Positions 10,701 to 48,170 of a DNA stretch of 53,846 nt are shown here, piece by piece; the stretch's first letter is position 1, and each line of letters begins with the position of its first letter. The stretch is from Psammoneis japonica (lineage: Eukaryota), in assembly GCA_008632985.1 (NCBI GenBank), contig QPGO01000331.1, positions 1-53,846 on the forward strand. Reading direction: 5' to 3'. The position numbers and the translations under genes were made by a program. The notes beneath the pieces are model-generated. The model had not been told where the DNA came from, ran no database searches, and was given only the letters and a program-made list of their open reading frames with translations.

Positions 10701-10873
10701 CACTGTTCTTTGTGGTGTTCATTGGAGCTGCGACTGCATTTGAAACAACAGCAGCACGGTCATTGCAGCGTTGGCGTTGACCCGTCGCGTCAGAGGGAAT
10801 TCAAATCTTGCGTGCATCATCCTTCGCGTGCGGCGGGAACGTTTGAGGCAACGGGGACGTTTGAGGCCACCGG
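7725..10873 (-). mobile_element. Tc1/mariner-pogo-like DNA transposon, TA-erased relic
   Basis: 22-bp TIRs: CCGCTGGCCTCAAACGTTCCCG (7725-7746) and CGGGGACGTTTGAGGCCACCGG (10852-10873). Subterminal copies at 7801-7818 and 10834-10850. Flanked by TA (7723-7724) and CA (10874-10875). Contains a DDE-like ORF. Confidence 0.85.
8086..10693 (-). pseudogene. Degenerate DDE_1/pogo-like transposase
   Basis: ORF 8460-10013 has LNMGMDDTGL (cf. NMDETG), SILVMDGDRGQ (cf. LLILDGHxSH) and NPARTGSEASCNQADVF (cf. PxxxTxxxQPxDxxxF). Broken into several frames; no Tyr in 517 aa. Confidence 0.7.
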
Positions 10874-11315
10874 CAGTCTTCGGGAATGTTAAAACAGAAA
10901 TGACCCTGACATGCCACTGTCAAAAAACTCTGTTCTGATGTTCCAAAGTGCCAGAAGTGCTTCCCAGCAGAAAAACCTGCCAGAGCTGCGTCCCTCCGGG
11001 TTGGCACTTCCAGAAAATTGGAACAGCCTGTTCCAACATTCCCGGAGTGCCTCATGATGCCATTTGTCTTTTCTGCACATGTTCTGCACAGAGTGCATGC
11101 CAGCGTTTTAAGATCCCATGCGCCACCACAAGACTCCTTCCCGGGACTCGTGAGATTTGTGTCATCAAAGTTTCTGCCGCTCGCACCATTCCTGTCACAA
11201 CAATCAACCCACAATCTGAGTCCGACAAACAGCAACAGTTCATTTCATCGCTGTCTCCTGACAATGTCAACAACACAACATGCCAGGGGGGTGAACTGGA
11301 AGGCACAGTGGATGC

Positions 11316-14180
11316 GTGCACCCCCATCAGCGTGAAACTGATGATGATGCGCCAATCCTTGGGGGCGACTTGTCAGCACCTGGCGACCTCGCCGAAAAGT
11401 GCAATGAAACTGCCCAGTTGGAAATGGGAGACAAATGCCGACAAACCCATTGTCAGAGACTTGCACGTTTGGCCAAGTTTTGGAAGGAGAATGACCCTGA
11501 ATGTCATTCTGTTGGCGTTGGAGAGGTTTCTGCTGAAGACCTTTGCGATCCAACTGAGCACTGCTTCAATCGGCACCGAGAAGACCTTGTGCATGCAGGC
11601 ATGAACGACCAGTTTGCATTGCATTTCTCAGCGTCAAACAAGAAGAAGGCCAGTGGAAAGCTCAAGTTGTGTGAAGACATCCAAAAACACAAAGACGCCA
11701 CAATGTGGGGTGCCAAGACGGCAGACGAGCGCTTGCCTGAGAGCTTCCGTGCAATGTTTGATGAGTTCCTCACCGGGTGCAAGAAGGAACATGCTCAAGC
11801 AAGAAAGAGAGGGAATGCAGATGAAAACTCTGCTGATCCTGTTCCCGTTTCCTTGCACAAGCTCATGCTGGAATGGAGCGTGGAAGCCAACAACGTGTTT
11901 GTGTGGTTCTGGACCATTGCCCAGTGGAATTTCATGGCCAGGTCAACATCCACAGATTCCTCACGGATGAAGAATTTCAAACTGAGCATGGACAGCTTGA
12001 CTGGAAAGCATGCAGAAGCAAAGGCCGACAAGTCTGGAGAGAGGCTTTCAGAGAAAAATGTGTGTGCCAACCCACTGGATTGGACGATGTGCTTTTGGAC
12101 GGGCGCGGGTGTTCATTGTGCTCTTTGTGGCGATGAGTTTGTTGGCAACGATGCTCTCTTTTTGGACAAAGGTGTGAAGGAAGGAATGTGCACCACCAAG
12201 CATTGTGAGCAGATTGCTGGAATTTTGCAGGCCCGCTTGGACAAAATCATGAATCACATGGATCCAAGTCGCGTGAATCCGTGTGGCACTCGAAAGGGCT
12301 CGGGGACCCATGCCTTGAATGGGACCACTTCACCCCCGTCAATTCCAGCTGTTGCACGTCGTGGAGAGTGGACTGTCGGGAGTGTCCTTGATTGCCATTG
12401 ACATTTTGGCAGCATTGGCGACCAACATCTTGGACGCATTCTTGCGGTTTGGATCCAAACGATGCATCATTTGACATGCTTCCACCTCATTGGAAGCTTG
12501 CAGATCCGACATCAAATGAAAAAGTGAAACTTGGCATGATGAAAACATTTGGTGAGAATGTGACAAATGAGCACAAGACTTTTGTTCCCACTCTGCTGCG
12601 GTGCTTTGCATGTGTGGTGCATCGTCCCGACTCGCTGATTGAAGTTGTGGTGAGCGTGCCGGGTCATGACTTTTCGAAGCTGTCAATCCTCCATGAAAGG
12701 AGATTTTTGGGGGAGCTGCAATCTCTTGTGACAACAGAGCCTGCAGAAGGGGCATTGACTGTCCCCACTGGGATGCCACCCCATGTCGGCATGGCAAGAC
12801 AACTGTGCGAGTTGACACGCAAAGCCGATTTGATGCTCGCGAATGTGGATTCGCAGACGGAGACGTTGGTGGCGGCAGTGTTGGATGCAACAGATCAAAA
12901 AGCATGGGATTCTGGACATGTGACAAGTGATCGTCTGAAAGGGATGTTCAAAAGTTTTCAGGAGGAGACAATGCAAATGATGCATTCTGAGTTGGATGGT
13001 TTCAAGACTGTTTTGTGGTCCTTCCCTGCGGGCGGCAGCAACATGTGCACAAACGGCCGCATTGGCGCGGCTTCTGATGATGGTCCAGTGGAAACCACCT
13101 TTTGCTGTGACAACAAAACACACATGGTTCCAAAGCAATTTCGTCTTCCATCGGGAACAACAATCAAGGAAGGCCTGAGATTTTGGCTTTCTGGCCAAAC
13201 CGCATCAGCTGATGGTGCAAAGGTTGGACCTTTTTGAGACCTTGTGCCTTCCTCTCTCCCACCAGAGGCAAGGAAGGTTTGTTCTGTTCAGTGGAGTCCT
13301 GTCTTTCGCTTTGTTGAGAATGCACTGTCAGAGCAAGATGAGTCGCTTGGCGCCGACTCGGATTTTGATGACTTGCACGAAAAGTGTGTCGCGTGCTTGA
13401 AGGAGCATGTGCTTGAAGGAGCATGCCTCGCATTGCTTTGCCAAAGGAGATCCCATGGGGTGGAGCCTTGGAACTTGGAGCAACAGGGTGAGTCATTCAA
13501 TGACACCAAAAAGTGGAGCCGAGTCGGACAAAGGATTTTTGAAAGCTGGTGCGAACCGAAACAAACCTCGGCACGCTGCAACTTGAAAGCATGGTCCTCA
13601 CAATGCGAAACATCCAGGTCGCCAATGCAGACGCCTTGAGAATGAAAGCGTGGCAGAATCAAGAGTGGGAGAAGAGGATGCCTTTGCCAAAGCTTTCAGT
13701 GGTGCAGAGGACAGAATGACAGATCCCATGCGTGAGCGAGACGAAGAAATCAGAGCTGAAGCAGAGCGGGAAATGGCGGCAGAACAAGCTCAGCAACAGA
13801 AAGAGCGTGCCCAAACTGGTGATGGAGTGGGCACTGATGGTGCTCTTCTTTGTGCCCATCAGACGAATGGCGTTGAACGGAATTGTGGCAACGACTCGTT
13901 TTCGGCACGAGTGTCGCATGGCAAAAAAGTTGGTCATGCGATTGACTCCGATTCTGCTGGTGCTGGTGTTGGCATGGGCAAGGCGGGGACCAAACCAACT
14001 CAACCTGGTGTGTGTCCAATTGTTGGATGTACTTGCTTTCGCACCGTTCCTGATCACAAGTGCAAAAACAAGAGCTGCAACAAGTGCGTCCACTGCTTGT
14101 GTGCGCAACGTTGCAGCTTGACGAGTGCAAGCAATGAACTGAGCGTGCATTGTTCAATTGCATGCAAAGGCAGTGATTGG
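11316..14180 (+). pseudogene. Crypton (stramenopile-type) tyrosine-recombinase transposon relic with C-terminal Cys-rich zinc-finger-like region
   Basis: Motifs QWNFMARS, KADKSGE...EKNVCANP, NPCGTRKGSGTHA (cf. HSxRKG), RRGEWTVGSVLDCH*HFGSIGDQHLGRIL, GLDP..ASFDMLPPHW and HMVPKQFRLP...WLSG...GPF, typical of oomycete/diatom Cryptons. Disrupted by TGA stops at 12399 and 13235, a frameshift near 12447 and a 16-bp tandem duplication at 13393-13424. Confidence 0.8.
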
Positions 14181-14464
14181 ACGTTTTGTCATCAGTCAGC
14201 ACAGTGTCATCATTGCATTTTACTTTTGCAAGAGCAACCGAAGAAGTGGTCCAAGAGGTGCAGCGAGCGGCCCACTCTTGCGCAGGTGGTGAAGCCAACG
14301 GTGATGGTGAGGGGAACGACAGTGAAATTGGACACGCCACTCCATCTTATGATCAGCGGCACTGGACAGTTTAGTTAAAAGTGTTCAGCATTGTCAAAAA
14401 TGCTTTGATCGTTCACTCTGTTGTCAATGCGCCTGCCCAACTTGTGCCAGTTCTGAGAGTGTTT

Positions 14465-15175
14465 TTTGGACAAAACAGAAATCCACAATTCTCAACAACA
14501 CACAACGAGACCAACCCAGCAGGATGCATTGTGCAATTGCTCCCAACATTGAAAAAGAAACAGAGAAATCGGTGCAAGCATCATTGAGACATCATGTCGT
14601 AAAGTGGGACACCGGCACGGCGGCACGCATCATTGTGCTGCTGCAGTTTCTTGCGTGTAACTTTGAAACACATGTTCAACGATGTGTGTCGGCAATGCCA
14701 GCAATGAACTTGTTCATTCTGTTGTTGTAATTTTTGGTTTAGACATCTTTAAAAAACATTTGACAATGACATCACAAAAGAATCACAGTCAACGGAAATT
14801 AACGCCAATCGCATCAGACGCTTGTTGCGCGATTTTGCGGCCCGCATGTGGGCCGCAAAAATCTCATCGCAAATTTTTGCGGCCCGCATGTGGGTCGCAA
14901 ATTCTTAAAATGACGCTTGTCTCGGAATGCGCACGCAAAACTTGCATCGCCGACATCCATCGTTGCACACGTGCATTTCTCAGTGGCACGCAACAAACTG
15001 CAGCAGCACAATGGTGCCCACCGCCGGTCTCCCACTTTACGGTGTGATGTCTCAATGATCCTCACACCGATTTCCCCGTTTCTTTCATCAATGTTGGGAG
15101 GGAATGCACAATGCATCTAAATGGGTTGGCCCCATCTTCTGTCATTGAGAATTGTGGATTTCTGTTTTGTTCGAA
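14465..15175. repeat. Long imperfect inverted repeat (arms ~14465-14700 and ~14945-15175)
   Basis: ACAAAACAGAAATCCACAATTCTCAA (~14470) is mirrored at ~15146-15171. TCATTGAGACATCA, GTAAAGTGGGA and CATTGTGCTGCTGCAGTTT are all mirrored in the right arm. Confidence 0.85.
14831..14903. repeat. Two tandem GC-rich palindromes TTTTGCGGCCC-GCATGT-GGGCCGCAAAA
   Basis: Copies at 14831-14863 and 14874-14903, between the arms of the long inverted repeat. A half-site occurs at 16083-16093. Confidence 0.9.
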
Positions 15176-16096
15176 ACCACACAGAATTTTCAAATTTGGA
15201 AAAGCACAAAATGACGGAATGAGCACCAATTTACAAACACTGCACAAACAGTTGTTCTTTTGTGACATGCCAAAACAGACAAAACATGGTTGTGCGGAAT
15301 GTGGTTTCCAATGGCAGTTGCTTGGCTGCTGATCTAGTCTAGTTCCTCAACCGTGATGACAGATTGCCGCGCCAGCTTTTTTGTGGAGTCAACAGAGCGG
15401 CTGTTGCTGACACGCATTCAGCAACAATGAGCTGCGGATCTCGTGCCTCAACTGTGATGCAATGAATTGCAGACATGCCAGCTTTGAAAGGAGCAAACAC
15501 TTTCTTTCAATCTCTGCCAATGCCAACTTGTGTCCTCCTGCAACAGTTCCGTCGCCGCGGCGCCTGACCTCTCCTTTGTCTGCGCCCATCATGTTTTCTT
15601 GATGCTTTCCCAAATTGATCACATGGGCATGGGCAATGACCTTGAATCGTGCTCGAGCTCTCTTGGCCATTGGCAACTCCACAGGAAGACTTGGAGGGGG
15701 GGCATGCACGGGTGCAGATGGTGCTTCGGCAGTGGACTGCGACACCGGATTTCGCGGCATGTCTTGAACAGGCGAAAAAGGCATGTCCGTTCCCGCTGCA
15801 AGCAATGCTGACACATCTGGCACTTCTCTGACGATGTTGTCAGGCGTCCGAGATTGCTGGAGTGAACATCCTTCACTGGTGTGGCCCGCCGCAGGGTCCG
15901 CCATGGTGGAGGGAGAAATCGGCGAAAAAGTGCGCGAAAATGCGCGCACATTTTAGAGGCTACGACAACAACCACTGGGACTTTTTTGACAGATGAAGTG
16001 TCGATTCCTGTGTTTTCGGGCATGGAGAATTCGACTGTGGGGTCAATTCATCGATTGTCTGTGTCATTGAAGATTTGAAAAAATTTGCGGCCCATG

Positions 16097-16414
16097 CTGC
16101 AAATTGCAAAACAATTGCGCGATGCACGTGCCCGAAGGTCGAATGTCGTTGCCCGAAGCAACATTCCTCCTTCGCGCAGATGTCCATTCTACATGGTGTG
16201 TGGTGTTGAAAATCTCGCTGTAGTCGCATGAGTCGTTGAAGTAATTTCATCAATGACCTCTGTTTTGCTGTGCTGCGTGATCTACACAAATCGGACATTC
16301 TCGAATGCTGGTATATTTTCTACGGTCTCTACGTGCGCGAAGCTCGAATTTCGTGCCCGAAGCAACAATCACCCTTCGGGCACGTGTGTCGCGCAATTGT
16401 TCAGCAATTCGCAG
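16097..16414. repeat. ~42-bp inverted repeat, possibly the subterminal structure of an unclassified element
   Basis: 16111-16138 ACAATTGCGCGATGCACGTGCCCGAAGG versus 16373-16400 CCTTCGGGCACGTGTGTCGCGCAATTGT. The direct repeat GCCCGAAGCAACA also occurs at ~16151 and ~16355. Confidence 0.8.
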
Positions 16415-20662: not shown

Positions 20663-20999
20663 TTTGATGGCACAACTGCTGGCAAAACGATGAAGTCCAA
20701 ATCCGGTGGGTTTCAGGTTTTAACAGTGACCCCAGCTATTGTAGTCAGGTTTGAACCCTGTCGATCATATCGTCAATTTTCTGCGAACGGTGGTGCCCCG
20801 GGGCGGCCAGTTCATTGCATCAAGCTAGAGAAGTAACAAAGTGCTCAGTCAGTTATGATGTCGAATGTCGCCCATGGCGTGCCGCACTGTACTGCCGGCG
20901 CGGCGCAATCTTGAAGAGTCTGTCCTCGAGAGCTACCGGGCACCGTACCGGCAGCAGCGAGGAGGAGTGTCGTTGAAGGCATTTCAAAGACTCATTACC

Positions 21000-22701
21000 C
21001 TTTCGAAGACGCGGCGGCGGGTGCCACCGGTGTTGTTGAAACACAGGCTGCTTGAGCCTGTGGTTGAAAGGGCTGACCTTCGCTGCGGAAAAATGTTGGC
21101 TCTGCTTTTGGTCATTCTTGTGAAGAGCCAAGAGAAGCCCAGCGCCAATGTGTTTCTTCATTCTGCAGCAGCAGGAGGCAAGCAGCACAGAGAGGGACAA
21201 ACGAGAGTGACAGCTGTGCCAAAGCGTGCAAGTGGTTCGAAACAAGAAGAAAGCCTCACCTCGGGGAGCCCCCCACCAGTTTTCCTGATGCCCTGCCAGC
21301 CAGCCAGCCAGCCAAGGGCAGCCAGGACAAAGAGCACCTCTCTCACACATGAGCGCTGCTGCTGGTGGGCCGACCTCAAGCGGGAGACGTGTGGCGCTGC
21401 CACTGCACGACCACCCCCTCTGTGCTGCCACAGCGGCTGGCACAGTGCGCTGCCTGCCCTTCTGCCACCTGCCGCTGGTCAAAACATGCAGCAATTTTTC
21501 AAGGCCAAAGCCAAGGATCTGCGTTGGAGAACATGAGACAAGGTCACAATGTGGGATTTTGCTGGCCTGCCCAAGTTTCAAGTTCAAGGTCAGTTTGGGC
21601 ACAGAGCTCACAAGGAGAGCTGGTGCTGGCACCAAGCATGCAGCGCACCTGCCACATGGGAGCGCGGCACTCCACCAGCAGCTCTTGACTTTCCCTGCGC
21701 AGCCCTTGTGCAAACACGCGCCACCCAAAGAGCAAGACTGCATTGCCGAGCAAAAGATCACTCCGCCAGGCTCCACAGGTGCCTCCCCACTTCTCAAAAC
21801 TGTCAGAAGCTTTCCAACACATGCTGCGCCAGATTCCCAAACACAGCCAGGCAGTGGTCAAAACATGCGCTCCAGCATGCCGGACAATCTCAAAACATGC
21901 ATGAAGCCCAGGGCACACATTCTTTCTGCGTGCAAGAGCTTTCCCCAGTGTGAACAGTTGCTGTGATGCTGCTGGTCATGGAACAGGGCAGAGTTGCTGC
22001 GCACACTGCTGCCCACCTCCAGCGCAGTGGGCGCCCCAAGTTTTCATCATCTGACTGCCCCAGCGAACCCAACAAGGCCCCAGTCCTGTGACGTGCTGGC
22101 TCCAGCTTCCAAAAGATGCTGCCGCAGATGTGGTGCTTGCCGCTTTCAGAAATCTGCAAGGAATGCCAAGGCCCAAGACTTTCAACCAACCTTGAGATGG
22201 CTGGCAGCAGCAGCACATGTGTGCACACTCTGCTGCAGACAATTTTGACGTGCAGGAAAACCAAACTCATTTTGACTGTGTTCACAGTTTGGGGACAATG
22301 TGCTGGCAACCAAAAGCTTGCCAGCGAGGTGACACCTCTTGCACACAAAACTCACTCAATGCTGCCTTTTTTGTCTTGCTTGGGCAACTTTCATGTGGAG
22401 GCCACCAAGCTTTGGCACTTGCAGGGCCCTGCCACCTGGGCTGTCCTCTTGCACAGCCAAATTGCTGCGCACTGCGCACCATCATCTGACGTGGCATGGC
22501 TGGCTGCCCTTGGTGACAAGCCTTCGCTGCTCGCACCCAGGAAAACGGTGCGGCCATCTGCAGCGAGGTCAACAGCTCAGAAGGCTTGTCAGCCACACGC
22601 CCTTGGACCCATGCCACCCTGTGCGAAAGAGCCACTGGCTGCCATGCGTTGCGCCTTTTGCAATGGCATGGTGTCCTCTGTGACGCAGCAATGATGGGGA
22701 G

Positions 22702-22757
<56 letters not shown>

Positions 22758-23340
22758 NNNNNNNNNNNNNNNNNNNNNNNNNNNNNNNNNNNNNNNNNNN
22801 NNNNNNNNNNNNNNNNNNNNNNNNNNNNNNNNNNNNNNNNNNNNNNNNNNNNNNNNNNNNNNNNNNNNNNNNNNNNNNNNNNNNNNNNNNNNNNNNNNNN
22901 NNNNNNNNNNNNNNNNNNNNNNNNNNNNNNNNNNNNNNNNNNNNNNNNNNNNNNNNNNNNNNNNNNNNNNNNNNNNNNNNNNNGTGTGTGTGTTCTTGCC
23001 CTCTCTGGAGCAGAAAATGGAGCACCCCCTTTCAAGAAGAGACCCACATCAAGTTTTGCTTGGTGGTCTTGGGCACAAACTTTGCATGGTTGGAGTTCCC
23101 ATCAAAGGTCCTGTGAGCATCATTTTTTTGTGAGAGGGCAAGGGCCTTTTTTTGTTGGGAACACTTCAAGGGGACCAAACAAATGGAGCTTTGTAAAACA
23201 ACCTGCACTCTTGCATTCGCCGTGGTTGTTCTCTCAGTGCAAAAAGGAGTCTCAGAGGGGCTGCACCTGGCCTCTGAGGGAGCTGATGAGGGGCTCGCAT
23301 TTTGAGCTTGTTGCCTCACTCACTTGTTGGTTGCACTGCA
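21000..23340. other. TpA-free island with no recognisable coding relic
   Basis: No TA seen in 21000-22757 and one in 22984-23340 (manual scan). Rich in TG/CA; contains a (CCAG)n tract at ~21296-21313. Confidence 0.85.
22708..22992. repeat. (TG)n microsatellite spanning an assembly gap (N 22758-22983)
   Basis: GT repeats on both sides of the N run. Confidence 0.95.
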
Positions 23341-24091
23341 GCATGCCTTAGAGTGTGCCGTTGTGATTGTAAAAGCAGTGCTAGGTTGTGAGCAGCTGAG
23401 CTGCTTCCACATAAACAGAGGCAACACATTTTGTACGACGGAGCACGCAGCATGTGCGCGCGAAGATGGCGGCTTACTCTGCACTTTCTACTCTAGAGCG
23501 GCTAGAGTTGTTGACTTCAATGACAGCTACAGTTGTGCGTCACTCTGCTTTTGAAAGGCATACTGTAAGTCAAGAGATTCCAGCTTCAGCCAAGCATTTC
23601 AAATGGCCCGCTTCGACTACCTTTGCTTCTCGTTAGTAAAAGTTCGAATCAAAACCTTCATCATCATGCATTTGGCTAGAAACTATCGCTAGATACTTGA
23701 GCTGTTGCACAAATGAGTGCCAGTGTGCTTAGCTCCCCATCTTCTGAAACCAAAAGTCATGACAAATCCAACTCGTTGTTTTGATCCTCGTCAATCGCCA
23801 CCTTTTTCCACAGCGGTTCATTCCGTCCATGTAGTCCTCGCTTCATCCATTGAATGCTGAACAATTTGAGAAAATTGCCATCAATCTCAAAGTAATATCA
23901 TCGTCCAATAGACCACACGCGCCACCAATTCCGCTTCTTTCTGCGCGCTTGCTCAGTTGGTAGGTCTACCATGAGATGGATCCTGAATGACCCAAAAAAT
24001 CTTTGAAGAATAATTGTCTTGCTTCGGCTTCAGAAGACCGGCACTCGCATCGACGCTTTTCCGTATCCAAGACATATGTTTCTCTTCTATC

Positions 24092-25606
24092 TCATTTGCT
24101 ATTGCTGACAGCGCTTCGTCTCAATAAGTACTCCTTGAGTTCGACATTGTTTTCTGTCTCGTAGTCAAGAAATTGCCTTACTGCATCTCGAAGCCCAGGG
24201 TGACATATATAGTGCGAGGAATGAATCAATGCAGGATCAAAGCCTCTCGCCCACTTGTAATCTAACATGCATTTTGTCCGTCAAAGCAGAAAGTAAATAT
24301 GTGAAAGGGTAAGTACCCAGACGAATTCAAACGCGAATACTCTTCCTTACCTCCACCACCAGCACCAGGTTCCATACGCTTCAGCCCATTTTTGATACAG
24401 TATTCAATTGCTGACCAATAGCAACACTCAAAATGCAAATTCTTGATCTCTCTCCCCGGAAGACAGCCCCAGTATCGACCGTAGAAAAACTCCATCCTTG
24501 ACAATGTTCAATGTTCCCGCAAAGACATCGTCTGCACGTAGCTTGTCTCCGGCAGATTTGTCCCGCGCACACAGAAAGCACAGGTTATGAATGAAGTCTC
24601 CCTTCACCAGGCACTGAAAGAAGTCGAGAGTCAGGTATTGTCGACCGTAAAACATCCGATTGACTGTAGACACATATATTTCGAACATGCGTTCCACCAA
24701 TCCATCGTGCTTCAGTATATCGCTTCCAGTCACGGCGTCGATTCGTACATTTTCGTCTTGTACAACCTTTTGCCGTTCTCGACGAATGTTGATTCGCCGT
24801 TTACTTTTGAAGCATTTCAAATAGTCCTCAAAGGACTTGTACGGCTTCCCGTCGTTGTTTGGATTGCTATTTGTCCAATGATATTGAAGCGACGTACGTC
24901 GCAAGTAGTCGTCCTTGTTCTTATTGAGTTTCGTCAGTACAGCCTTGAGCTTACCTCCCAAAGAGCCTTTTTCCTCTTTCTCGTTCACTTCCTTAGCTTT
25001 AGGGAGTTCGCCTGAAAGGTGTGTTGCCTCATCGTGAGTCAGGAAGTTGAAATGAACACTGGAAATGTTATTTGATTCAACAAGTCGTCGCAAAAAGGAA
25101 CCAACCATGACAGTGAGATTAGCGATCTCCTCTTTTGAAAATGTCTCTCTGATTTCCGGATGGAACATTATCCGTGCTCCAGTGGCCGGTGTAAAGGGTA
25201 CGCCGACTAGTAGCTTTGGATAGTATTTGATGCCATTCTGATACGCGGCTTCGGCCCACGCATCGTCGAAAATGAATTCTCCGTTGGAATGATTTTTGAC
25301 ATAGAGAGGGATATATCCGCGTACCGCTCCATCGATCTTCAGTGACAAGTGCTGAGGGACCCAACCAGTCTGTGGCGACACGCATTTGGATTCTTCGAGA
25401 CAGCACAAAAACGCGTGTTCCAAGAACGGAGAGGAAGATCCATCAGGTGCAAGACAATTATTCCATTCCTTCGCAGGAATGTCGGAAATTGACGGGTTCA
25501 GTTCAAATTCCACTTTCCGTTTCTTAGTTGGCGGTGCGGTCGCCAACGCATCTGTGTATGATGCAACCAAATACAGCAGCCATCCGCAAACAAGCAGCGG
25601 GCTCAT
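24092..25606 (-). CDS. DUF482/FemAB-like GNAT-fold protein, probably plastid-targeted
   Basis: SPFLEHAFL...GWVPQHL, PLYVKNHSNGEFIFDDAWA, YYPKLLVGVPFTPATG, YGRYWG, LHFECCY, EPGAGG|DYKWARGFDP. Intron 24262-24350; 1-nt indel near 24488. Signal peptide MSPLLVCGWLLYLVASYTDA-L. Confidence 0.85.
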
Positions 25607-26069
25607 GGTGAAGAATGTGGAAATGGTCTGGAAAAGATCGATACTGTAGATAGATACAGTAGATCATCGTTCGGGGGTGAATGACGTGGCAAAATTCCAA
25701 ATGTTAGTTTTACGCTTTCGAGTATGAATATAAACATAAAGTACTGCAATAACAATGTTCGTCCCCGTAACTTTTTATGTATGTGTTTTAGTCGAATCAT
25801 TCGTACGTCAGATGAATGAGGAGAAAAATGGCGCGCCGGATTTTTTCGTCGGCACGTCTTCCGTCTATCTCACACGAAACAATGCACGAAGCACATTCGG
25901 CCAACATCCAACATGCAACATCATCTTTCACAACACAAAACGAATGTACCGAGTTTATTGTGCTTTCTACAACAGCGCATTTCCTGTTCGAATAATCAAG
26001 GTTCCTCCCCGTATCGACACGATTGTCTCTACTTCATTTCTCTCCCGTTCTCTACTCTCCCTCCTCAGC

Positions 26070-36106: not shown

Positions 36107-36292
36107 GTGCCAGCACATGATGCAACATCATGCCTTCAGCAACGCTGTCATTTTTCGCCCATTGTGGTGCCATGCGATGGTCTGATTGGCAAGGAGGCTC
36201 AAGCCGCCCTACGTCAGCTAGCGGGAAAGATTTCTAACAAGTGGCAGAAAAGCCCTGTTTGGAAGTGTGTGGCTTCTTGTCAACGCAAGTGA
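36107..36292 (+). mobile_element. 3' fragment of a CRE-like non-LTR retrotransposon (C-terminal restriction-like endonuclease region)
   Basis: CLQQRCHFSPIVVPCDGLIGKEAQAALRQLAGKISNKWQK resembles the CxxxxxHFTPFVxSxDGLLGxEAxxxLxxLAxxLxxKW tail of such elements. Confidence 0.6.
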
Positions 36293-37499
36293 GATTCAGC
36301 ATGAGGACTCAACAAACACAGCACTGATGCAGGCCACACTCTTGTGATGCACAAGCATCCAGGACACCAGCCAAATGTGCTGCAGTCAAGCAGCCTCAAA
36401 TGGTCATGTGTGGCACATCATGCCAGTGCCACAGCAGCAAAGTCAAGTGAGCAATGACACACCACAGAATTGAGCTCGTCCTGTGTTGCACCCAAGAATG
36501 ATGGAACATTTTTGTGGTGCATGACTTTTTTTTAAGTGCGGCTTGTTTGAAAAATGACTGGTGGCAAATCCAGGGAAAAGCTCTAAAAGTTGCACTCACA
36601 TGCATTTCAGCAAAAGTCAACCTGGGCTCTAAACCTCCTCATTGTGTGTCCAAAGTTTTTCTGCCACAGAGGAGGGGCCAACAAATGGTTTTGCTCAAAT
36701 GTTGCCATGATTTTTTGGGTGCAGCACAGGATGTGCTGCAAAGAACAAGAGAGGGGACAACCCCCCATCAAAAGCATGAGTTCAGGCATGCAGCAGATGG
36801 GCTGGTCTCTGCTGAAAAACCCAACAGGGAGGTTGTTGGCAGTGATGAGAGATTCTCAAAAGCAACAACAACAACCAGCCCGGTGGCAGCATTGCATGTC
36901 ATCGTGGTCAACAAACCCTTTTGTTGGATTTCAGTTGACTCCATCTCACAATGAGCATCACACCAAGTCTTCTTCATCTGAGGCAGCAGCAGAGACTTTT
37001 TTGTGAGTTGAATGCCCGCCTGTCTTCACGCCAGGAGTTTTTGACACTTGGATGAGTTCAAGTGTCAATTTCCCCCATCAGAAGCCCAGACACGGGCCTC
37101 CACACAATCCAGTGCAAAGTCCATCCATGTTCTTAGTGTGTGCCACACCACATGCATGGCAACATGCTCTCTCATGAGCAGATTGCTGCTTTGTGCTGGA
37201 GCTTTCGTGCACCTTGACACACAGACTTGCAGATCCTTGGTTGAGCAGCTGTGCCTCTGTTCTCTTTGAGATCTTCATGAACATGGAACATTTTGATGAC
37301 AGCAGGAGCATGCATCACATGTCAAATCAACAAAAAAAGACCAGATCCATGTTTTGAGTGCTGTCGCTCCTTTGCCACCAGCTGGGCTGGCGCCAGCTGA
37401 CCCACACTTCCAGCACACCATTGATTGTGGCAGAAGCTCATGGGGATCAGCCAGAATGGACATCACCTCACAGTGACGCCCCACTGAAATAACCAGCAA

Positions 37500-40400
37500 C
37501 AGAGCAAGTGTCACAAAGCATGGAGTTCTTCATTTTCTTGAGGCTTTGCATGGTTTTGCCACAGCAACGCAGTTCATTGTCCATGAGGTGGAGTGGGACA
37601 TGTGATCTTCCACTGAGTTCAGCAGCACATCTCTGTCTTTGGCAAGGTGCTCCTGTTTTTTGTTGCACGTTGCCGTGAGTTTGGCTTCCACTTGTTTGCA
37701 CTGAGATGATTTCCTGGTGTCTGCATCACATGACCATGCACCTCTTTGTCATGCTCTTCCCACAACTCCCACCAGGATTTCCAAGTGCAGGCTCCAATTT
37801 GCACTGCCCAAATGGGAGGTGAGTGATTCTCCTTGTGACACTTTTCCAGCAGTCCTGTGCTGCAAAGATGCATTTCTTGAAAAGTGCTCCAAAGAGTGGA
37901 AAAATGATGGTTGAAAACTTGATGCCAACCCATGTCAGACTGGGCTCTCCACAAAGGACGCAACATTGGGGCAATGTTGTCATTGCATGTCATCTCTCAC
38001 CTTGAAACCATGCTTCAATGGAGGACAAAATAAGATCACACAATGGGGACATTGTGTTGATGTTGTTGCAGAGCTCAAGGAGGCCTTGTGGGAATTTGCA
38101 ATGCCAGGTTTCATTGTCAGGGCAGCACAAAATGCAACCCTGATCTTCCCTGGGATGTTCGCAAGAAAGGTGATGATGTGGTCTCACTGGATTGCAATGG
38201 TGAGTGATCTTGTTTGCAGGAACAAGAAGCTCATGGATCAATTTGACAGCAGACACATGTTGCTTTGAGAACTGGTGCACCAATGCAGTGTGCATGGACC
38301 AGTCTGTTTTGTCTGTGATTGATTCATCCCATTTGTTCCTTTCCTGAATGTGCACCCAAGCAGAGCAGGAGCTGCGCCAGTGTGTCAAACCGCAGATTTG
38401 AGCCCTGTGGCAATGGCCCTGTCTTGAACACTCAGGTGGGATTGGCAATGGGGGAGGGGGATCACCTTGATTGTGTCAGATTTGCACTGACCTTGATGTC
38501 ATCATGTCAGTGTGTTGGCATGCATGTTGATCTGAGCACCAAGAGGGAGAACTCGACTGGAGAGTGTCTGTCCTGATGTCCTTTCACCCACTCAAGAGCA
38601 GGAGCCTGGGCTGGAGAAAAAGGATTGAGGATTTTTCAATGGCTTGGAAGGTCTGACAAATCTTGTTGATGATGTCCCAATCAGATGACAAGATGTTGGC
38701 ACCATGCTTGCACAGTTTAAAATCTGTCTGGGGGGTGGAGACTTGAGCTGAAGGATCAACAGAAGGACTGCTGTCAGACAATCAGGAGAGAACTTGAACA
38801 AGAGCCCTGTTGTCACACCAGTTGTCAACACCTTTGTAAGATGACATTTTGCAAAATTCAAGCAGACAAAAAACAGAGCGTGTCAGGGACATGAACCCAC
38901 AGGCCTCTGCTTGGCACAAAGAAGGCATTCTGTCAAACACCAGTCTGGCACAATCCACCAATGTTCTCCCATCAAATGCAATGGTCCACCCAAATGTTGC
39001 TTTCTGTAGATGCACAGACCCATTGCTGCCTGTCACAAGGCAATTTGATGCAAAGCAATCCACCAGTTTGAGCGGGGAAAAACATGGAATTCCATGTCAG
39101 AGGACAGGGCAGACTCCCAGGAAGGCAATGCTTGCAGACAGTCTTTAAAGAACTTGGGGAGAGGAGGAGGTGTTTCCACTGTCAATTTTGACCAATGAGG
39201 AAGACATTGGCACTGTCCATTGCAGGTGGAGATGATCTCCACTGGGCAAGATGAGTCAGAAGGATCAGGAACCATTTCAATTTGATGCCGGGATGTTGCC
39301 ACTGTGTCCTGGGCCAGAAACACATCAAAACTGGATGGAGACCATGCATGCAAATGTGATTCCTTTGGAGACCAACAGGCAGAGGCCTGCATGTGCATCT
39401 TGGAAGGAGGCACTGACCAATCTCCCAGAGGGGCTCATGGTCTGGTGGAGTCTGGATGACACAACAATTCACACAGGCATGTCCAGGGACCCCATGCTGG
39501 ATGACAAGGTTTTGTTCATTCAATGTTGTCAACAGTGCTGACACTGCTCAGGCAAGTTGGATCACTGCAGACCTTAAACTTGTCCAGAAAGCATCCATCT
39601 GCCATGGCAATGTCCAACACAGTGAGAACCCTGAGACACAGACAGCAATGGTTGATCCACTAAATCTCTCGGGACAAGAATTCTGAAGACTCCAGAGCAA
39701 CATGTCCACCAAGAACTGGTCGTCATCTCATTGCAGAGGTGGCACCCCATCTTCGTGTCAAATCAACAAAGACATGGACACCCACAAAACAGCCTTCTTG
39801 TGCCTCCATTGGGCATTTGCTGCTGGCAGGAAACCAAGATTGAGCAAGCTCCTCAGCACAAGTCAACTCACACTGGAGCTTTTGGCTGGCCACATTTTCA
39901 GCCATCACCAGCTGCTTCTGTCAATGTCACAATGGTTCTTTGGTGCTGCTCACAAGCAATCTGGCACAGTTGTGAGCAGGCACTCATCTCTCAACTGGTG
40001 TTTCTATCAAGGAAGGCTGGGGGCAAGCCCTTGCTGGCCAAATGCCTTGCTTGAGATCCTGTTCTCAACAGCTGCTGCAGCTGAAAATGGGCTGTTTTTG
40101 AGGAAGGATTTTTCAGGTGAGCAAAAGGTTCAAGAAGCATTGCTTGCTCATGATTTTGCAAGACAGCAGAGCCAAAAGATGGTTGGCTCAAGGTGCAAAT
40201 TTGGTGGTGCTGCAGAAATTGTGGCTTCCATTTTTTTGCAAGGGCTGGACAAGGTTGAGAGTGTGCCTTGAGACACCATTTTCTGGTGTGTGCACATTTG
40301 AATTTTTGCAGGGCGTGCTCTCACAACAAGTTTCGAGCTGTGTTTGGAGACATTGGGCTTGAGCACAAAATGACCAAAAGCAACACAGAGGTGCTGCTGG

Positions 40401-41700
40401 GCTGTGTTGTTCAACATGAGTGACCTGGAAAGTTCTTGGTTGGTTGGCCAGGAGGAGTGGGCTGTTGGTGTTTCTTGACCAAGAAATGATCATGACCAAG
40501 GCAAATGGATTTCTGCATCAAAAAAAAGGAGGAAAACAGAGAGGCACCACTTTGAAGATTTGTTGGAAGTCACGTGAGATCACACCTCTTGCACTCACTG
40601 GTGTGCATGGGGGCATGCCAAGTGTGCTGTCTCACAACTGTTGCCACAATTCTGTCTTGGTGTCTTGGCCGCACCTTCTGCATGTTTTTCTGTTCAAGCT
40701 CTGGCACAAATGTTGCCTTTCTCTGACAGTGTGACAATGGTTCTCACCTGCCCATTTTGACTGCTTCTCTCATTGACATGCCTTCATTTCATCATCACAA
40801 GCAATCTCATGCATTGGAAAGTGACTGACATTGAGCTCTTTTGGCTTGTTTGCTTGTCATTCTTCTCCACTCTTCTTGGTGTTTTCTTCCTTGTGTGCCA
40901 AGTTATTTTGCAAATTCTGCGTACTTCAAAAGTCATTTCAGATGGTCAACTTGGCAAACTTTTGGCTGCGTTCCATCCACACCTCTCAGGTGTCAATGAC
41001 CCCCCTTCTGCCTGTTGTCAATTTAAGTTCCCTGCTTCACATGGCAGACAAAAATCTTCCATCATTGCTGCACTCAGAAATTTTGAATGTGAAAGAACCA
41101 GTTCAGCATGCACTGACCTTTCTTCCATGTGCCAACAACTTTGCACAAGTTTTGGTGCATGTTCTGTGTGTCTCAAAATTAATTTCAAACAATTGACTTG
41201 CCAAACTGTTGACTGCTCTTTGTCCACACCTCTCAGGTGTCAATGACTCCCCCTCTGCATGCTATCAGTTTAAGTTTTCTGCCGCCCCCCATGTGGCAAA
41301 TGAGAATCCTCAATCATTGCTGCTCCAAAAAGTCTGAATTTGAGGCTGGCTCAGCATGTGTTGGTGGTTGCTTCATGCCCCACTCTTTCTCATTTTGAAA
41401 CATTTCCTGACTGTCTGTTTCACCTTGGCAGCCAAATCTGATCCCAAGAAGAGAGCCTTGATTGCAGCATCAAGTTTTGACATCTCATTCATTTTGCTGG
41501 TCCTCTTTTTGCTGCTGCCAGCTGTTTCCAGTGGGTGCCACAGATTTGCAGTGTCAATCTTGGCCAGCTGCCATGCACCTCTGCCACATTGTGTTGGTGT
41601 GCAAGGGGTTTGGGTTGGCTTGTTGTGTTGCCAGAGTTGCAGGGTGGAAGCACAGCAGCACTGCAAGAGCAGATGGCTTTGGTGTTGAGTTCAATTTTTG
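37500..41700 (-). mobile_element. Degenerate diatom LINE (Ambal-like) with RNase H and zinc-knuckle C-terminus
   Basis: RNase H relic LVTGSNGSV..ATFGWTIA...PSLCQAEACG...WCDNRALV (38782-39063). Also SSDWDIINKI, HLSCEHPREDQGCILCCP, QSDMGWHQVF and WINHCCLCLRVLTVLDIAMADG (39591-39668). Many stops; boundaries approximate. Confidence 0.75.
40977..41358. repeat. ~135-bp imperfect direct repeat
   Basis: CCACACCTCTCAGGTGTCAATGAC...TTTAAGTT...ATCATTGCTGC...TCAGCATG at ~40977-41110 and ~41224-41358. Confidence 0.8.
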
Positions 41701-44369
41701 CACCATGAGAAAAAGAACTTCACAACACACACCTTTGCCCACACCCACACACACCATTTCACAGTGACTGCAATGATGAGACTGTCATGATGCACCACTG
41801 ATGGTCAAAGACTTCTGCAGAACTTTGACCCACAAAACCCAAGCCTTCCACTGAAGATGCTGCAAGCAAATGCACATGTTGGTCATTGAGAACAAGTTGG
41901 TGCTGAACTTTCAAAATGTTTCAACAAAGAGGGTGCCACAGCTGCAGCTGCATGTGCTTGTGACAGCTCATTGGAAGTTGATCATGGGCAAAGCATGTTG
42001 CTCATTCTGTGGCTTGCTGCTGTCTCCAAAGTCAACAACCAAGAGATGATTGTCTCAGGAGGCAGCACCCACCCTGACACACAAAATCTGGCAAAAACAG
42101 TTGGAAGTTGGAAGCTGCCCATGCCAGCATGATGGGCAAGGAGCTTCCAGCCTGCTTTCTTCTAACTTCTTGGTGTTGAAGCAAAGACATGAAAGTGCTT
42201 GCCCCTCTCAAAAGATGCACAAGCCAATGTGATCTCTGGTCATGATGTGCGACTCCTCAATGGCAAAGAACTCTCCCACTCCAGAGCCCAAAAGGACTCA
42301 GTGGTTGTTTTGCTTTGTTGATTTTTCAGGAGATGCTTGAGTCTGCCTTGCTGTGAGCATCAAGATTTGTGAAAGTGGCGACAGTGTTGAATGTTTGCAA
42401 CATGGATAACGGGCTTGTTGAGCTGCCAGTGCACTGGACATGCAGCATCAGTGCTCACTTTGGAGGTGTGGGTGCAGCTGCCAGCCTGGAAGGCAAAATC
42501 GAAGAATGACAAGGGTCTCACAGAACTCAAGGAGCTTCTGAGCTGAACTGATGAAAAGATCAAGAGCCTTGTGTCTTGCAAAATTTTTAGACTTTTTGGC
42601 AGAAACACTGCTGCACAGTCAAATGATTGTTTTGTGCTGCTGCCTGCTTGTTGAGCCATGGAAGAAACTTGCTTTAGCTGCTCAGTTGGTTCTTTTGCTC
42701 ACATGCTCTGGCATGTTTCAACAGAGCAAAGCACTTGAAAAGTGCAAACGTGGCAGAAGCTAAGCTGCACATCAAATGAGCAACTGCAATGTGAGCACCT
42801 TGACACTCCAGCTGCAGAGTGCAAAATGTCAGCCACCCAGTTGTGGAGCATGTGAAAAATGTGTCAGATGGCTGTCAACTGTGGTGGACAATGATGCTGG
42901 GCAGAACAAGAGCTGAATGATCCCTCACCTTTTGTACTCTGTTTTTTGTTGAGCACCACATTTGCTGCACACAAGACAGCAAGGCTCTGAGTTTGCAATC
43001 TGCTCAAGAAGCAACACCATGAATCCAGTGTGTGATGCACAGCTGCCAAAATGACAGAATTGCTGAGTGTCAAAATTGAAGGACCTTGTTGGACACTTCT
43101 GCACTTCATCAGGGGGGTGACTTTAAAAACTGGGGCCACTTTTTTAATGCACTGTGCTGCTGGTTTGCCAGGAAAGTGCTGGTTTGCCAGGAAAGGAAAC
43201 CATGCAACAAAAAAAATCACATCTTTGCCATGACCCATGGGAAACAAGAAGCAAGAAGATTGAAAGTTGTTGCTGGGTTGCTGTGTTGGCTGGCTGAAAG
43301 ACATTGGCAGCACCATTGCACTGAACATGGTGCTGAGAAAAACAGGCACTGAGGGGGGACAATCAATCTGACCTCTTGATGGGACAAAACCAGAAGTGGC
43401 CCCACATCTCCAGGCATTCCAGGCACAAACCTCTTCAAGTGAGACACAGTGGCAACCACCCATTCTGCCAGCTTTCCAAGATGATGTCTGCCCAACTCCC
43501 ACAGAGGAAGAGACAGAATGGAGCAAATGTGAGCAGGACATTTGACAAAAGAAAAAAATGTCATGGAGCCAGCAAACCAGGGAGAAAGGCAACATTAGAA
43601 GCAACAAGCAAGAGCAGGGTTGATGGCAAGACCATGACAGCAGCTGTGTCTGTTCTGGGTGGCGCCATGACTGCAACAATGAATCTGCCACCACTCTCCA
43701 CTCAAGCTGTGCTCTGGAAGTGACTGTGCACATGATGGAGCACCAGCACACAACCATGTGCTGCTGCTCAGTGAGCAGACACTTGCCTGAGACAAAGGTT
43801 GGGTTTGTGACTAAAACAGAGTGAGTGCATTGTCATCTGTTCAGTGTTGGAGCATCCAGAACAAGCAGGAAATGCAAGAGACCCAGAAGCAGATCCATTG
43901 AAGAGAAGATGCTTTGGATCCTGATGTGGTGGATCAGACGACACTTTGGAAATGAATGTGCACTTGTTGCCAATCTCACCAACTTTCTTTTGTCTCACCG
44001 ACTGGAGTGAATCATCCAGTTTGCACAAATTGTGTGTTGTGGTGTCAGCAGGCAGCACCTCTTGCATGATCACAAGATTGAAGTTCATTGAAAGCTTCCA
44101 GGCAAACCACAGCCATCACAGCAACCAGCACAAGTGTGACAGGCAGCACAGGAAACCTTGGAGAGGACTCTCTTTTGATGACATGGACCCTTGTTGGTTC
44201 AACATTCACTCCAAAGAGTCAAGAGCACTGTGTTCAGTGCATGTGGTGCCAACCTCCATTTTGTCATCTGAGTCAGGAAAACTGCACTGTGAGTGGCAGA
44301 GGAGGAGGTGGAGGAAAGGAGGAGGAGGAGGCCAAGGACACAGCCAAGGCAGGGATGGCAGAGGAAAGA

Positions 44370-46600
44370 AGTCTTGCTGCAACAAAAACAAAAAGACTGG
44401 TGACCCCAACAAGAGTTTCAAACTGGAAATGAAGTTTCATCCATCATTGATGAACAGCAACTCATGCAATTTGATGGTCAAAGACATCAAGGAAAAGATC
44501 ATCAACCATGAGCAGAAGGAATGTGATCAAGATGTGCATCTGGCAAGGTCCCTGGAAGACATGGCATGCATGACGTTCACTGGTGACAGTCCAACGCTGG
44601 TGATGGCAATGCCAGCAGTGCGCCAGCAGAGACAGGCAAAGATTGCCTGACCAAGGCAAACAAGAGGGCCAGAGAAGAAAGGCAACTGGAATGTGAGCAC
44701 AAGATCAAGTTACAAGACTGTGGTGAGAAAGCAAAGAAGCTCAAAGACAACAGAAGCACTGCACTTGTGGTGATCCCAAAGGATCACTGTTCCAAGCTGA
44801 TGGAGCAGAGAGTGCAAGCTGACCCCAGTCATCAGAGGATCAGAGATGACCCAATGAAGCTGCTGAAGCTGATCCAGTCACTTGTGTTCAACTCCATGAG
44901 AGGTTGAGACCCCTCTTCCACACACTTGCCAACAAGTTCCCAAAGCACACACTGGAAGTGAAACAGCTGGAGGATGAGTCACTGAATGTCTTCCTGTCAA
45001 GATTTAAGAATCAACGGGGTGCCACAACAAGTGATGGTCTTGACAGCAAAATGTTGGACAGATTTTTTTGTCAAGAATGCCAAGGAGTGCAAGGACTGTG
45101 CTGCCACAGCAGATGAGCAAATGCTGAAGGATGCTGCTTTCAAGACATTGACAACACACCTGTTTGTGGATTGTTGCCACAAGAGCCTCAAAAAGAGCCT
45201 TGTGAGAGACTGCAGCCCAGGCAAGGATTCACATCCAAATGCCCTCAAGAAGGCAATGGATGTGTTGCTGAACTGTCCAAAGGATGCATGATGATCTGCG
45301 CAAGGGGTGAAGCAAGAAGAACAACAATGAATGCCCAAAAAACAAGAAAGAAGACAAGGGCACAATTGCATGCTGCCCAACAGCCTGCAAGACCAGAGTG
45401 ATGCACACAGAGTGGCAAAACAGCATGCCATTGTTGTGGTGAGCCAAACCACAAGTCTCCAGACTGCAGGTGCAAGGATGAGATTCCACAGAAGGGCTGG
45501 TGTGAGAACACCTGTGAGAGATTGGTTGCCAGGGACAGAGTCGTGCACAGAGAGACAATGACAATTCATCAGTGAGCAGTGATGAGGACACCAGCGTTGA
45601 CACCCACAGGTCAAGTTGATCTGCAAGCTCCAACAGAAGAAACATCACATTGCATGGGTTCCAGTTGGATGAACAGGCGCTGAAGAAGGGCCAGACATGA
45701 GTTTGAGCCAAGCTGATGTCAGCATTGAGTCAGATGAGATCATCCTTGACAACAGCTTTGCTCTCTTGGTGTGGCAGCAAGTCAGAAACTGGTGCACAAT
45801 GTGCAACCAGCAAGGATCAAGATTGTCCTTTCTGCCAACACAGGAGTGGATGCTTTGGACAAAGTCCACCCTGTGCCAGGATGGGGTGAGGTGAAGCTCA
45901 GATCACAGAATGCAGCAGCTGACATCCTGAGTCTCAAGGATGTGAAGAGCAAGTGCTGCATTGCACATGACAAGAGAGTGGCAGACAAGCTCCATCTGCT
46001 GGATGAGAAGACTGGCAAACAGGTCACAGTGTTCAAAGTTAATGACATCCAGCTGCACACCTTTGCACCAAGCCAGCAATTCTTTGACAACACAAAAGAG
46101 CTTCAAGAAGGTGAGTCAAATGTGAGCATGCTGTCAAAGGACAAGAAGGTTGCAAAGAAGACAAGCAAAAAGCACAAGAGTGTGTCAGGAGCTCTTGTTC
46201 TGACTGTGAAACAGAGTGTGAAAGGCCACACTAAACAAGAGGCAGCAAATGCTTCTGAGGAAGCATTGAGACTGTGCCATGAGGCTGGAATGCCCAGTGC
46301 GAAAAATTTCAAGCTGTTTTTATGTTCAAACCAGAGGTGAAGAACCTGCCCATTCTCCCTGAAGATGTGGACAGAAAGGCAGCCATGTGGGGTCCACTGA
46401 CAGACACACTGAAAGGCAAGACCAAGCATGCACACCATTCCCATGAGAGGAGTGACATCATTGCCATTCCACCTGAGATCCGCAAGAAGCAGAGAGAAGG
46501 TGTGACCCTCTGCGTTGACTTTGTCGAAGTGTGCAGTGCCAACACACTGCACGCAATTGACGAGAAAATTGACTTGCTTGTCAGTTCAACATCCAGTGTG
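44370..46600 (+). mobile_element. Truncated Ty1/copia (CoDi-type) gag-protease-partial integrase relic
   Basis: Gag: EMKFHP...IKEKIINHEQK, RIRDDPMKLLKLIQ, KQLEDESLNVFLSRFK. Knuckle CHCCGEPNHKSPDC (~45426-45467). Protease IILDNS and VPGWGEV. Pre-integrase/integrase LCHEAGMPS, WGPLTDTLKGKT, VTLCVDF. No LTR identified. Confidence 0.8.
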
Positions 46601-48170
46601 GTTGCAGAAACATGGCCACCCAAAGCTTCTGCAAGGAGGTGCTGTTTTCCACACAAAACATGCCGAAAAATGCCGGTCCTCACATGGCAGCTGGTTTTGT
46701 CATCCTGTTGATGTGCCCTGCACCATCTGCCCAATGTTGTTGAACTTGATGTGAAAGCACAATGTTGTGGCATTGAAATGGCAAGAGTTGCTTTTTTGAC
46801 CATTGCAATTGTCACCCATGACTGAGCACAAAATCTTCAATTTTTTGGTCACTGCCAACACACATCATTGCACACTGTCACATGCTCCACCTCATGTCAC
46901 CTTGGAAGTCATGATGCAGAAATGTGCATTGTGCCTCATTTTCTTGCAGAGTTGCCATTTTTCTTGCAAAAGCACAGTGTGGCCAAGATTTGAGTTGAGT
47001 GCAGTTTGGGATCTCATTTTTTCATGTTTTTGGGGGACACTGAGACACAGCTGGAAGTCAAGATTGTGCCACAATGATCTTTGAACTGCCAGTTTGTGAA
47101 CTCACTTGATGGAGTTTGTGCATTGTGGAGGTTCAGCAGTGCTGTGGAACAGAATTGTGCAGAGCTGTGTGCTGGCACATGTCTCTCTGAAGTGGGCTGG
47201 GGCAGGCATCCTTTTTTTTTCGCAGGTGTGTGTGAGGCACAAGCCACTGGCTCCACGCCCCATTGTCAGAGTCTCAGAGCTGCCAGAGGCAAGCCATCAA
47301 GCACCATCCATTCCACAGGATTCCCCCCCCCCAAGTTTTGTGCTCACAGTTCTCTTTTTGTTGCCGGTGTCCAGCTTCTCATTTTGTCTGTGCATCACGA
47401 AGTGTGTGCTTTGCCACATTTTGGGGCCAGGAGGGTGGTCACAGGCGAATCACACATTTTTCTGCGTTGATGCAATTCATGGATTTTCCTGCTCATGTCT
47501 TTGGAAAGCAGAGTAAAAGTTAATTACCAGCATTGACATGTACACAATAGATGCCCAATCATTGTTGTTCCCTTCGCAGACCTTTTGATGAGCCTCAGTG
47601 GGCGGCGCGGACGCCCGGATGGACCGATTGTTCGCAGCCGTCCGTCTTCCAGCCGCGAGAGCCTCCTCTGCTGCACAGACGAACACTGCGAAGCGCATGA
47701 TTGCGTCGCCGAGGGCGGAGGCTCACGGTTAGCTCTAGCTAGTTGGAGAGTGCGCTGCCCAAGGCTACTACTAGAGAAGTAGCGAGTAGCGAGAGGCCTA
47801 GCTAGAGAGTAAACGAGTAGCCGTGACGTGCAGGGAGGGAAAGTGAAATAATGAAGAGTATCAGCCAAGAAACGGCGAACCATGGGATCGGCAAGACCGA
47901 TCGTCGCTGCTCAAACTGTCCCAATAACTTTGCTTTGTGTGTGTTTTTTTAAACCACAATGTGAAAGTGAGGTTGTACAGCATCGTAATAAATCTATTTC
48001 ACTCCTAGTAGCTCGAGAGCTGCAAGTACTGGTTTGAATGTACTAGAGAAGCTCATTTTCAACCGCGCGTCCGTGGGTACCAAAGAAGCCAAAACCGTGT
48101 AAACTTGGAAAACAACGATTCTGGCATCCAAAACCGGTAAACCCTGAAGAAGAGCAATTCTTTATACCCC

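Follow-up and report, generated by a model that had tools for sequence, protein, structure and literature searches.

We analysed the TA dinucleotides that survive in a decayed transposon island of the diatom Psammoneis japonica. The window, 53,846 nucleotides long, is one whole contig (QPGO01000331.1; G000:C328 in our numbering) of the 91.4-Mb genome. Its gene regions carry about 42 TA and 58 CG per kb, and a two-state hidden Markov model set the borders of three TA-depleted islands (Table 1), in which CA and TG reach 1.6–2.1 times their expected frequency. The repeats match the islands and the Pfam-matched genes sit in TA-normal segments; TA depletion is thus confined to mobile DNA. The focal region is decayed mobile DNA, its element labels resting on motifs, copy number and one feature-based lead. 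That lead concerns the minus-strand element: in a feature comparison, a frame of the relative L140 scored 0.94 with clusters of RNase H. WVKGHQD, which we take to be an RNase H-type motif, is visible in the element's own translation, and a Pfam scan of its frames and those of its relatives returned no match. The second element carries CX2CX4HX4C at 45426–45467, presumably the mark of a copia-type protein. A Pfam scan of its frames and its relatives' frames gave no match to a transposon family, and tblastn with other copia frames found no match in the remnant.

Between 36500 and 46330 the focal island retains 34 TA, 29 of which lie in TAA or TTA: TTAA (11), CTAA/TTAG (11), ATAA/TTAT (5) and GTAA/TTAC (2). 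GTAC (2), ATAG/CTAT (2) and CTAC/GTAG (1) make up the remaining five. The excess of TAA, TTA and TTAA among survivors is confirmed. An earlier note on this DNA had put the count at roughly 32 TA in about 10 kb, some 27 of them in TAA/TTA and many as TTAA, and all six TTAA positions that it quoted are correct to within one base. It had also listed four survivors in 8.3–11.1 kb; three have the contexts given (CTAA at 8748 and 9393, TTAA at 10890), but the fourth, a TTAA at 11109, lies 9 bases outside. With NTAN contexts compared between island and genes and corrected for composition and newly arisen TA, the excess stands under all three nulls. TAA/TTA makes up 38.1% of the window's 1330 gene TA (binomial p = 2e-8; TTAA p = 9e-8), 46.5% is expected if TA arose anew from the island's TG and CA (p = 3e-6), and a first-order Markov null built from the island's own neighbours expects 52% (p = 5e-5; TTAA p = 2e-4).

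The same contexts survive elsewhere. On seven other contigs, in stretches that were chosen for carrying relatives of the focal element and hence are not fully independent, YTAR accounts for 127 of 213 TA in 84 depleted 1-kb bins versus 81 of 486 TA in the 13 TA-normal bins; one ATAT, two ATAC and two GTAC remain in the depleted bins. Within the window, the survivors in 8131–14000 are TCTACA, TCTAAC, TCTAAA, GTTAAA and TTTAAG. Because CG is largely retained in this TA-poor island, TA loss is independent of CG loss. Additionally, the islands at 8131–16189 and 36236–47513 show equal TA loss with CG at 45 versus 5.6 per kb, TA erasure running ahead of CG decay.

Part of the focal survivors are probably new TA. 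Among the 13 with aligned relatives, five are also TA in at least two relatives and three seem newly arisen, and at 9 of the 34 the other haplotype (contig C54, 97–98% identity) lacks the TA. Survivors in contexts that the rate model described below ranks as fast are missing from that haplotype more often than the rest (5/8 versus 4/26, p = 0.017, with a threshold picked after the data were seen). In run X1, short-read contigs span each of the 30 bins and carry the same sequence with allele differences; the run is possibly the source sample itself, and its agreement speaks only against an assembly artefact.

Table 1. Islands, elements and surviving TTAA sites of the window (positions counted from its first base).
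Feature	Position	Strand	Remarks
TA- and CG-depleted island of decayed transposon DNA (focal island)	36236..47513	.	34 TA and 63 CG in 11278 bases
Second TA-depleted island	8131..16189	.	24 TA; CG largely retained, 45 per kb; 64–93% repeats elsewhere
Third TA-depleted island	20997..23348	.	1 TA (TGTAAA)
Repeated element, probably the RNase H-bearing end of a non-LTR retrotransposon	37325..39760	-	10–18 other loci per 250-base bin; 67–74% identity
Decayed Ty1/copia-like gag-protease-integrase remnant	44400..46600	+	20–25 other loci per bin; 69–83% identity
Surviving TTAA (TTTAAG), possibly new	36532..36535	.	Other haplotype TGAA
Surviving TTAA (TTTAAA), probably arose in this copy	38717..38720	.	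Relatives mostly GA/AA
Surviving TTAA (TTTAAA)	39145..39148	.	
Surviving TTAA (CTTAAA)	39574..39577	.	
Surviving TTAA (TTTAAG)	41023..41026	.	
Surviving TTAA (ATTAAT)	41179..41182	.	
Surviving TTAA (TTTAAG)	41270..41273	.	
Surviving TTAA (TTTAAA)	43123..43126	.	
Surviving TTAA (TTTAAT)	43144..43147	.	
Surviving TTAA (TTTAAG), old survivor	45004..45007	.	TA in 7/15 aligned relatives
Surviving TTAA (GTTAAT)	46039..46042	.	

TA-only transitions and the flanking rule

All 20 fetched loci of the focal copia part are TA-depleted, and the focal element is therefore unusable for rates. Conversion was instead measured in family A, a young TA-rich copia family elsewhere in the genome that was found through an RVT_2 search (Pfam RVT_2 and gag_pre-integrs). 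The search returned 30 loci, in which 0 to 97% of the reference TA had turned into TG or CA. In 10 partly converted copies, TA>TG occurred at 870 of 4001 sites, and the other adenine contexts changed at 0.5–0.7% (AA>AG 41/5805, CA>CG 40/6531, GA>GG 35/6731). Transversions at TA numbered seven in these copies (four TA>TC, three TA>TT). CG>TG decay reached 106/5188, with TCG and ACG both at 4.8% in the family and thus no TCG preference.

The change occurs in DNA after insertion, as indicated by differences within LTR pairs and between haplotypes. The 5′ and 3′ long terminal repeats (LTRs) of a copy could be aligned in 18 of 19 pairs, and TA-type changes made up 124 of their 196 mismatched bases; CA/TG double differences between the haplotypes number 8 in 9721 focal bases versus 2 in 30050 gene bases. 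Both strands are targeted (TG 1308, CA 1073), with a weak strand term that favours the antisense strand (0.82, 0.68–0.96). No strand coordination of neighbouring hits was found in four distance classes (p = 0.12–0.73). The copies are mostly independent, the median agreement in direction being 0.60 over 94 pairs and the highest 0.78. Family A thus displays TA-only transitions at the DNA level, on both strands and at a flank-dependent rate.

Conversion is also graded along family A. Partly converted copies (L091–L120, L167–L186) peak in the 5′ internal region (0.67–0.98) and are lower at the 3′ end (0.01–0.72), and LTR pairs that differ retain TA in the 3′ LTR at 87 sites and in the 5′ LTR at 17. 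This gradient looks like nucleation and spreading.

Each TA holds two target adenines, and its outcome (TG, CA or unchanged) reports the strand hit. We fitted strand-oriented rates, with a free exposure for each copy segment, to 277 sites and 5287 site-by-copy states. The first fit used 204 sites in 23 of the 29 non-reference family A loci, leaving out one locus near-identical to the reference, a second reference, one pattern-sharing copy and three below 85% identity; 73 upstream sites were then added from 17 of 20 stretches, two of the others being references and one unusable. The overlap between two pieces of one copy was dropped as well. With C set to 1, the rates were 0.24 (A), 0.41 (G) and 1.05 (T) for the +1 base; 0.43, 0.70 and 0.93 for the +2 base; 1.63, 0.86 and 0.78 for the −1-side base (5′ of the T); and 1.87, 1.35 and 0.63 for the −2 base, in the same order. 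TAAA accordingly converts at 0.08 of the TACC rate. When sites were bootstrapped in 119 rounds under the model that includes CG terms, the +1 ranges were 0.12–0.27 for A, 0.22–0.52 for G and 0.80–1.32 for T. An adjoining CpG slows conversion, perhaps through methylation (CGTA 0.30, 0.14–0.53; TACG 0.53, 0.30–0.99). A synonymy term of 1.11 (0.98–1.29) left the +1 rates unaffected.

Supporting these rates, the direction taken by the majority of copies at a site favoured C over A at 28/35 sites, T over A at 21/26 and C over G at 41/46, with weaker outcomes for T over G (18/31, p = 0.08) and G over A (12/18, p = 0.14). In strand competition, a TAA strand took the majority at 6 of 35 sites against TAC and at 3 of 26 against TAT. 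Survival by context in segments at least 60% converted was highest for TTAA (39/88), CTAA (48/152), CTAG (12/62), GTAA (55/318) and CTAC (45/377); faster contexts were ATAA (15/162), GTAC (12/203), ATAC (20/385), ATAG (14/290) and ATAT (1/195). Some non-TAA sites survive more strongly than the four-position model predicts (the L091 site at 2206 and others), namely CTTCTACATT in 8/8 copies and CGTCTACGCC in 7/10.

The motif is TAY > TAG > TAA, and that the rate depends on the flanks we regard as practically certain. The earlier note had proposed that an A followed by another A is a poor substrate, and this is borne out by the rate of TAA relative to TAC and by how seldom a TAA strand wins. Its preferred motif of about TAB needs replacing, as G at +1 is also slow and the +2, −1 and −2 bases matter. 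Protection of TTAA on both strands, also suggested there, holds in so far as TTAA is slow because both strands read TAA, but TTAA is not immune: none of 10 survives in older copies of another family (family B), and where two TA-rich relatives have an aligned TTAA, the window shows TG in six of six cases. As a fingerprint of the enzyme, the context preference served to exclude several known enzymes (see below) but named none.

The model was further checked out of sample. For the 73 new sites, rates fitted on the 204 sites alone predicted the direction of conversion with a log-likelihood of −456.8 versus −501.8 (724 conversions). Similarly, the family B copy L122 agreed in direction (A:T 2:22, G:T 4:23; −113.3 versus −125.5), as did five older copies (−237.6 versus −258.5). 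In the focal island, the slowest quarter of gene TA contexts takes in 25 of the 34 survivors. Three survival values were tried; at 7%, and from the starting composition of family A, the model predicts 11.6 TTAA, 7.7 CTAA and 3.6 ATAA among 34 survivors, and 11, 11 and 5 were observed.

Proposed mechanism and rival explanations

The results show a host process that mutates A:T to G:C at TpA of transposon DNA after insertion, on either strand and site by site. Every TA presents one target adenine per strand, and a hit leaves TG or CA and destroys the target. Flanks set the rate of an adenine, as the fits show: a 3′ pyrimidine is best, G lowers the rate to about 0.4 and A to about 0.24, a second A at +2 halves it again, A at −1 or −2 speeds the adenine and T at −2 slows it. 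The data also show, in part, that TA persists only where both strands are slow; old islands would then retain mainly YTAR, chiefly TTAA with TTTAAA-like flanks, and gain a few new TA by ordinary mutation. For the chemistry, we infer adenine deamination, most likely conversion of adenine to inosine by an enzyme of the TadA/ADAT superfamily recruited to silenced repeats. We put the probability of the whole reading, a TadA/ADAT-type deaminase mutating TpA in transposons, at about 0.6.

Several results weigh against it. In a sequence comparison, A>G looks the same as T>C on the opposite strand. Searches of the genome with PF00383, PF14437 and PF02137 returned housekeeping-type genes only and no special deaminase. 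TACG is the tRNA motif of bacterial TadA, and as a preferred motif here it was rejected, its rate being 0.53–0.61. The editor ABE7.10 (see below) is reported to take C at −1 (YAY), and here CA lies about 35-fold below TA. The weak antisense bias and the uncoordinated neighbouring hits are unlike the trace of a processive single-strand deaminase. Direction alone does not separate A from G at +1 (5:12 sites, p = 0.14). The family B copies L128 and L130 (79 conversions) fall below chance in direction (−56.5 versus −54.8), although their survival does follow the model (TTAA 4/4, ATAT 0/9), and GTAA is over-predicted in the focal island (6.6 versus 2).

A possible, somewhat less favoured explanation, compatible with deamination, is that the enzyme reads TA only and that the flank effect stems from DNA mechanics (3′ purine stacking, stiff A/T tracts) or from a bound protein; the preference would then be real but weak as an enzyme fingerprint. 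Stacking and tract geometry would give the order A < G < pyrimidine, seen at +1 as well as at +2, and its mirror image, the slowing by T at −2; the +2 and −2 effects largely act on the whole site, and an adjoining CpG also slows conversion. The +1 effect, however, is strand-specific and picks the adenine (C over G at 41/46 sites), as contact with an enzyme pocket would. Part of the flank effect may be DNA shape. It is unlikely that the lesion sits on the thymine, oxidised or otherwise modified so as to pair with G, or that the adenine is first methylated and deaminated afterwards; the motif, taken on the T strand, would then be RTA > CTA > TTA. At a palindromic TA, A>G and T>C are the same event, and pure transitions suit any mispairing base. 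The genome nevertheless gave no match to phage-type Dam or N6_N4_Mtase where controls matched (MT-A70 was not searched), and a Tet_JBP search found no match in genome or control.

It is very improbable that polymerase eta causes the changes by error-prone repair synthesis once mismatches have arisen at methylated CpG. Both strands of a TA offer a WA hotspot, according to the accessible part of PMC7884765, and the islands do show CpG decay. A WA motif would need AA to be raised, but AA>AG stands at 0.7%, at the level of CA and GA; TA shows 7 transversions versus 870 transitions, TA conversion reaches 22% versus 2% for CG decay, and an adjoining CpG slows the site rather than promoting it. It is more improbable still that there is no preference and that the survivors reflect base composition or new TA in T/A runs: although 3 of 13 focal TA look newly arisen, 9 of 34 are absent from the other haplotype and the Markov null alone expects 52% TAA/TTA, all nulls were rejected, and TACC converts more than ten times as fast as TAAA where the TA is known to be ancestral. 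It is equally remote that the choice of TA is mainly due to selection on the reading frames of the transposons, or to editing of their RNA ahead of reverse transcription. A few non-TAA sites do survive strongly, such as CTTCTACATT, but the synonymous term is close to 1 and leaves the +1 rates the same, hits fall on the two strands in similar numbers, TA differences separate the LTRs within a copy, and copies are mostly independent.

Known systems, candidate genes and neighbouring features

Repeat-induced point mutation (RIP) of fungi depends on a homologue of cytosine methyltransferases and changes C:G to T:A, by which TpA is created. Like RIP, the changes described here are dense, dinucleotide-specific transitions confined to repeats with context-biased survivors; unlike RIP, they remove TpA, the opposite polarity, and so fall outside it.

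For the sources that follow, our statements refer to their accessible parts. Bigelowiella natans shows TpA-only hypermutation of integrated nucleocytoplasmic large DNA virus and virophage DNA, at a per-generation rate raised about 1000-fold, for which an ADAT2-like deaminase was proposed without test (bioRxiv 10.64898/2026.01.13.699255). Common to both cases are A:T>G:C changes only at TpA, on both strands, in foreign or mobile DNA and in patches, giving TpA-poor clusters rich in CpA and TpG. Bigelowiella belongs to a different supergroup, however, and here retrotransposons are driven to near-complete erasure. The flanking rule TAY > TAG > TAA with its +2 and −2 effects is measured here; the accessible text of the preprint gives none, and its Fig. 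2B and Table S2 may. In the searchable literature, which mostly leaves out subscription journals, we found no diatom report of TpA hypermutation, and this preprint with its untested enzyme guess is the one precedent for targeted A:T>G:C genomic mutation. New here is the measured multi-position flank signature of a hypermutation reported once before. It turns the enzyme question into a testable one and can separate homology from convergence with Bigelowiella.

Guide-independent edits of the TadA-derived base editor ABE8e show a preference for TAT (n = 58), and ABE7.10 prefers YAY (PMC11983105). Consistent with these editors, the changes here are A>G in DNA with T at −1 and a pyrimidine at +1. 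The editors are products of laboratory evolution that work on the single strands exposed by Cas9 and tolerate other 5′ bases; the activity here is natural, about 30–40-fold TA-strict, repeat-targeted and near strand-symmetric. Fungal Tad2-Tad3-Ame1 mRNA editing has a strong U at −1 and favours A or G at +1, and animal ADAR has a slight G preference at +1 (both PMC11156358). These systems likewise deaminate adenine, but on RNA and with a +1 purine, the opposite of the rule found here; both were ruled out by the +1 rates of A (0.24) and G (0.41) and by the DNA-level change. Amphioxus BjADAT2/3 is a natural ADAT2 that deaminates A in DNA, preferring GAA for A and TCG for C (PMC10354150). Here, in contrast, GA and AA are not raised and TCG is no faster than ACG. 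By this comparison, the signature fits TadA-derived DNA editors (TAT/YAY) and not polymerase eta, ADAR, fungal Tad2/3 or BjADAT2.

Tentatively, diatoms and chlorarachniophytes may share an undescribed genome-defence pathway in which a natural deaminase with a TAYY motif acts on double-stranded chromosomal DNA, nucleating at the 5′ side of a new transposon and spreading. If so, it would stand beside RIP and APOBEC as their adenine counterpart, and would amount to a natural A-to-G editor of double-stranded DNA; any natural DNA adenine editor would bear on base editing. The rates let transposon copies in such genomes be dated, and TA-poor open frames inside islands need not be genes.

Judged by sequence, none of the genome's deaminase genes seems to stand out as the mutator. 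As HxE-PCxxC candidates the genome has an ADAT2-like gene (G000:C26, L159) and a TadA-like gene (C38, L156) that is extended at its N terminus; both look like ordinary tRNA editors, and genome searches found no extra TadA/ADAT paralogue. The genome also holds what we take, by motif, to be dCMP-, guanine- and RibD-like deaminases. Two A_deamin genes are present, on C40 and at G000:C79:344558-345390 (L164, L165). The latter, ADAT1/ADAR-like, has 317 relatives, the named ones among the best 120 being from diatoms; it was rejected as a genome-specific enzyme, since these named relatives come from many diatoms. Separately, a 491-aa frame (L158:310-1785, minus strand) joins a zinc-deaminase domain to an apparent oxygenase domain, presumably of the 2-oxoglutarate/Fe type.

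Elsewhere in the window, the C54 haplotype carries about 2.6 kb of extra DNA at 36160 and does not align over 7.7–16.5 kb; transposon presence thus varies between haplotypes. Nested inverted repeats resembling miniature inverted-repeat transposable elements lie at 14464–15176 and 16097–16414, and the 14.0–15.4 kb stretch has kept more of its TA than the remainder of the 8131–16189 island. Two glycosyltransferase-like gene duplicates, 70–76% identical, flank the focal island (33409–34604 and 48315–49501). A 411-aa frame on the minus strand (24428–25663) matches FemAB_like (PF04339) strongly, a family described for peptidoglycan synthesis and found here on an algal contig.

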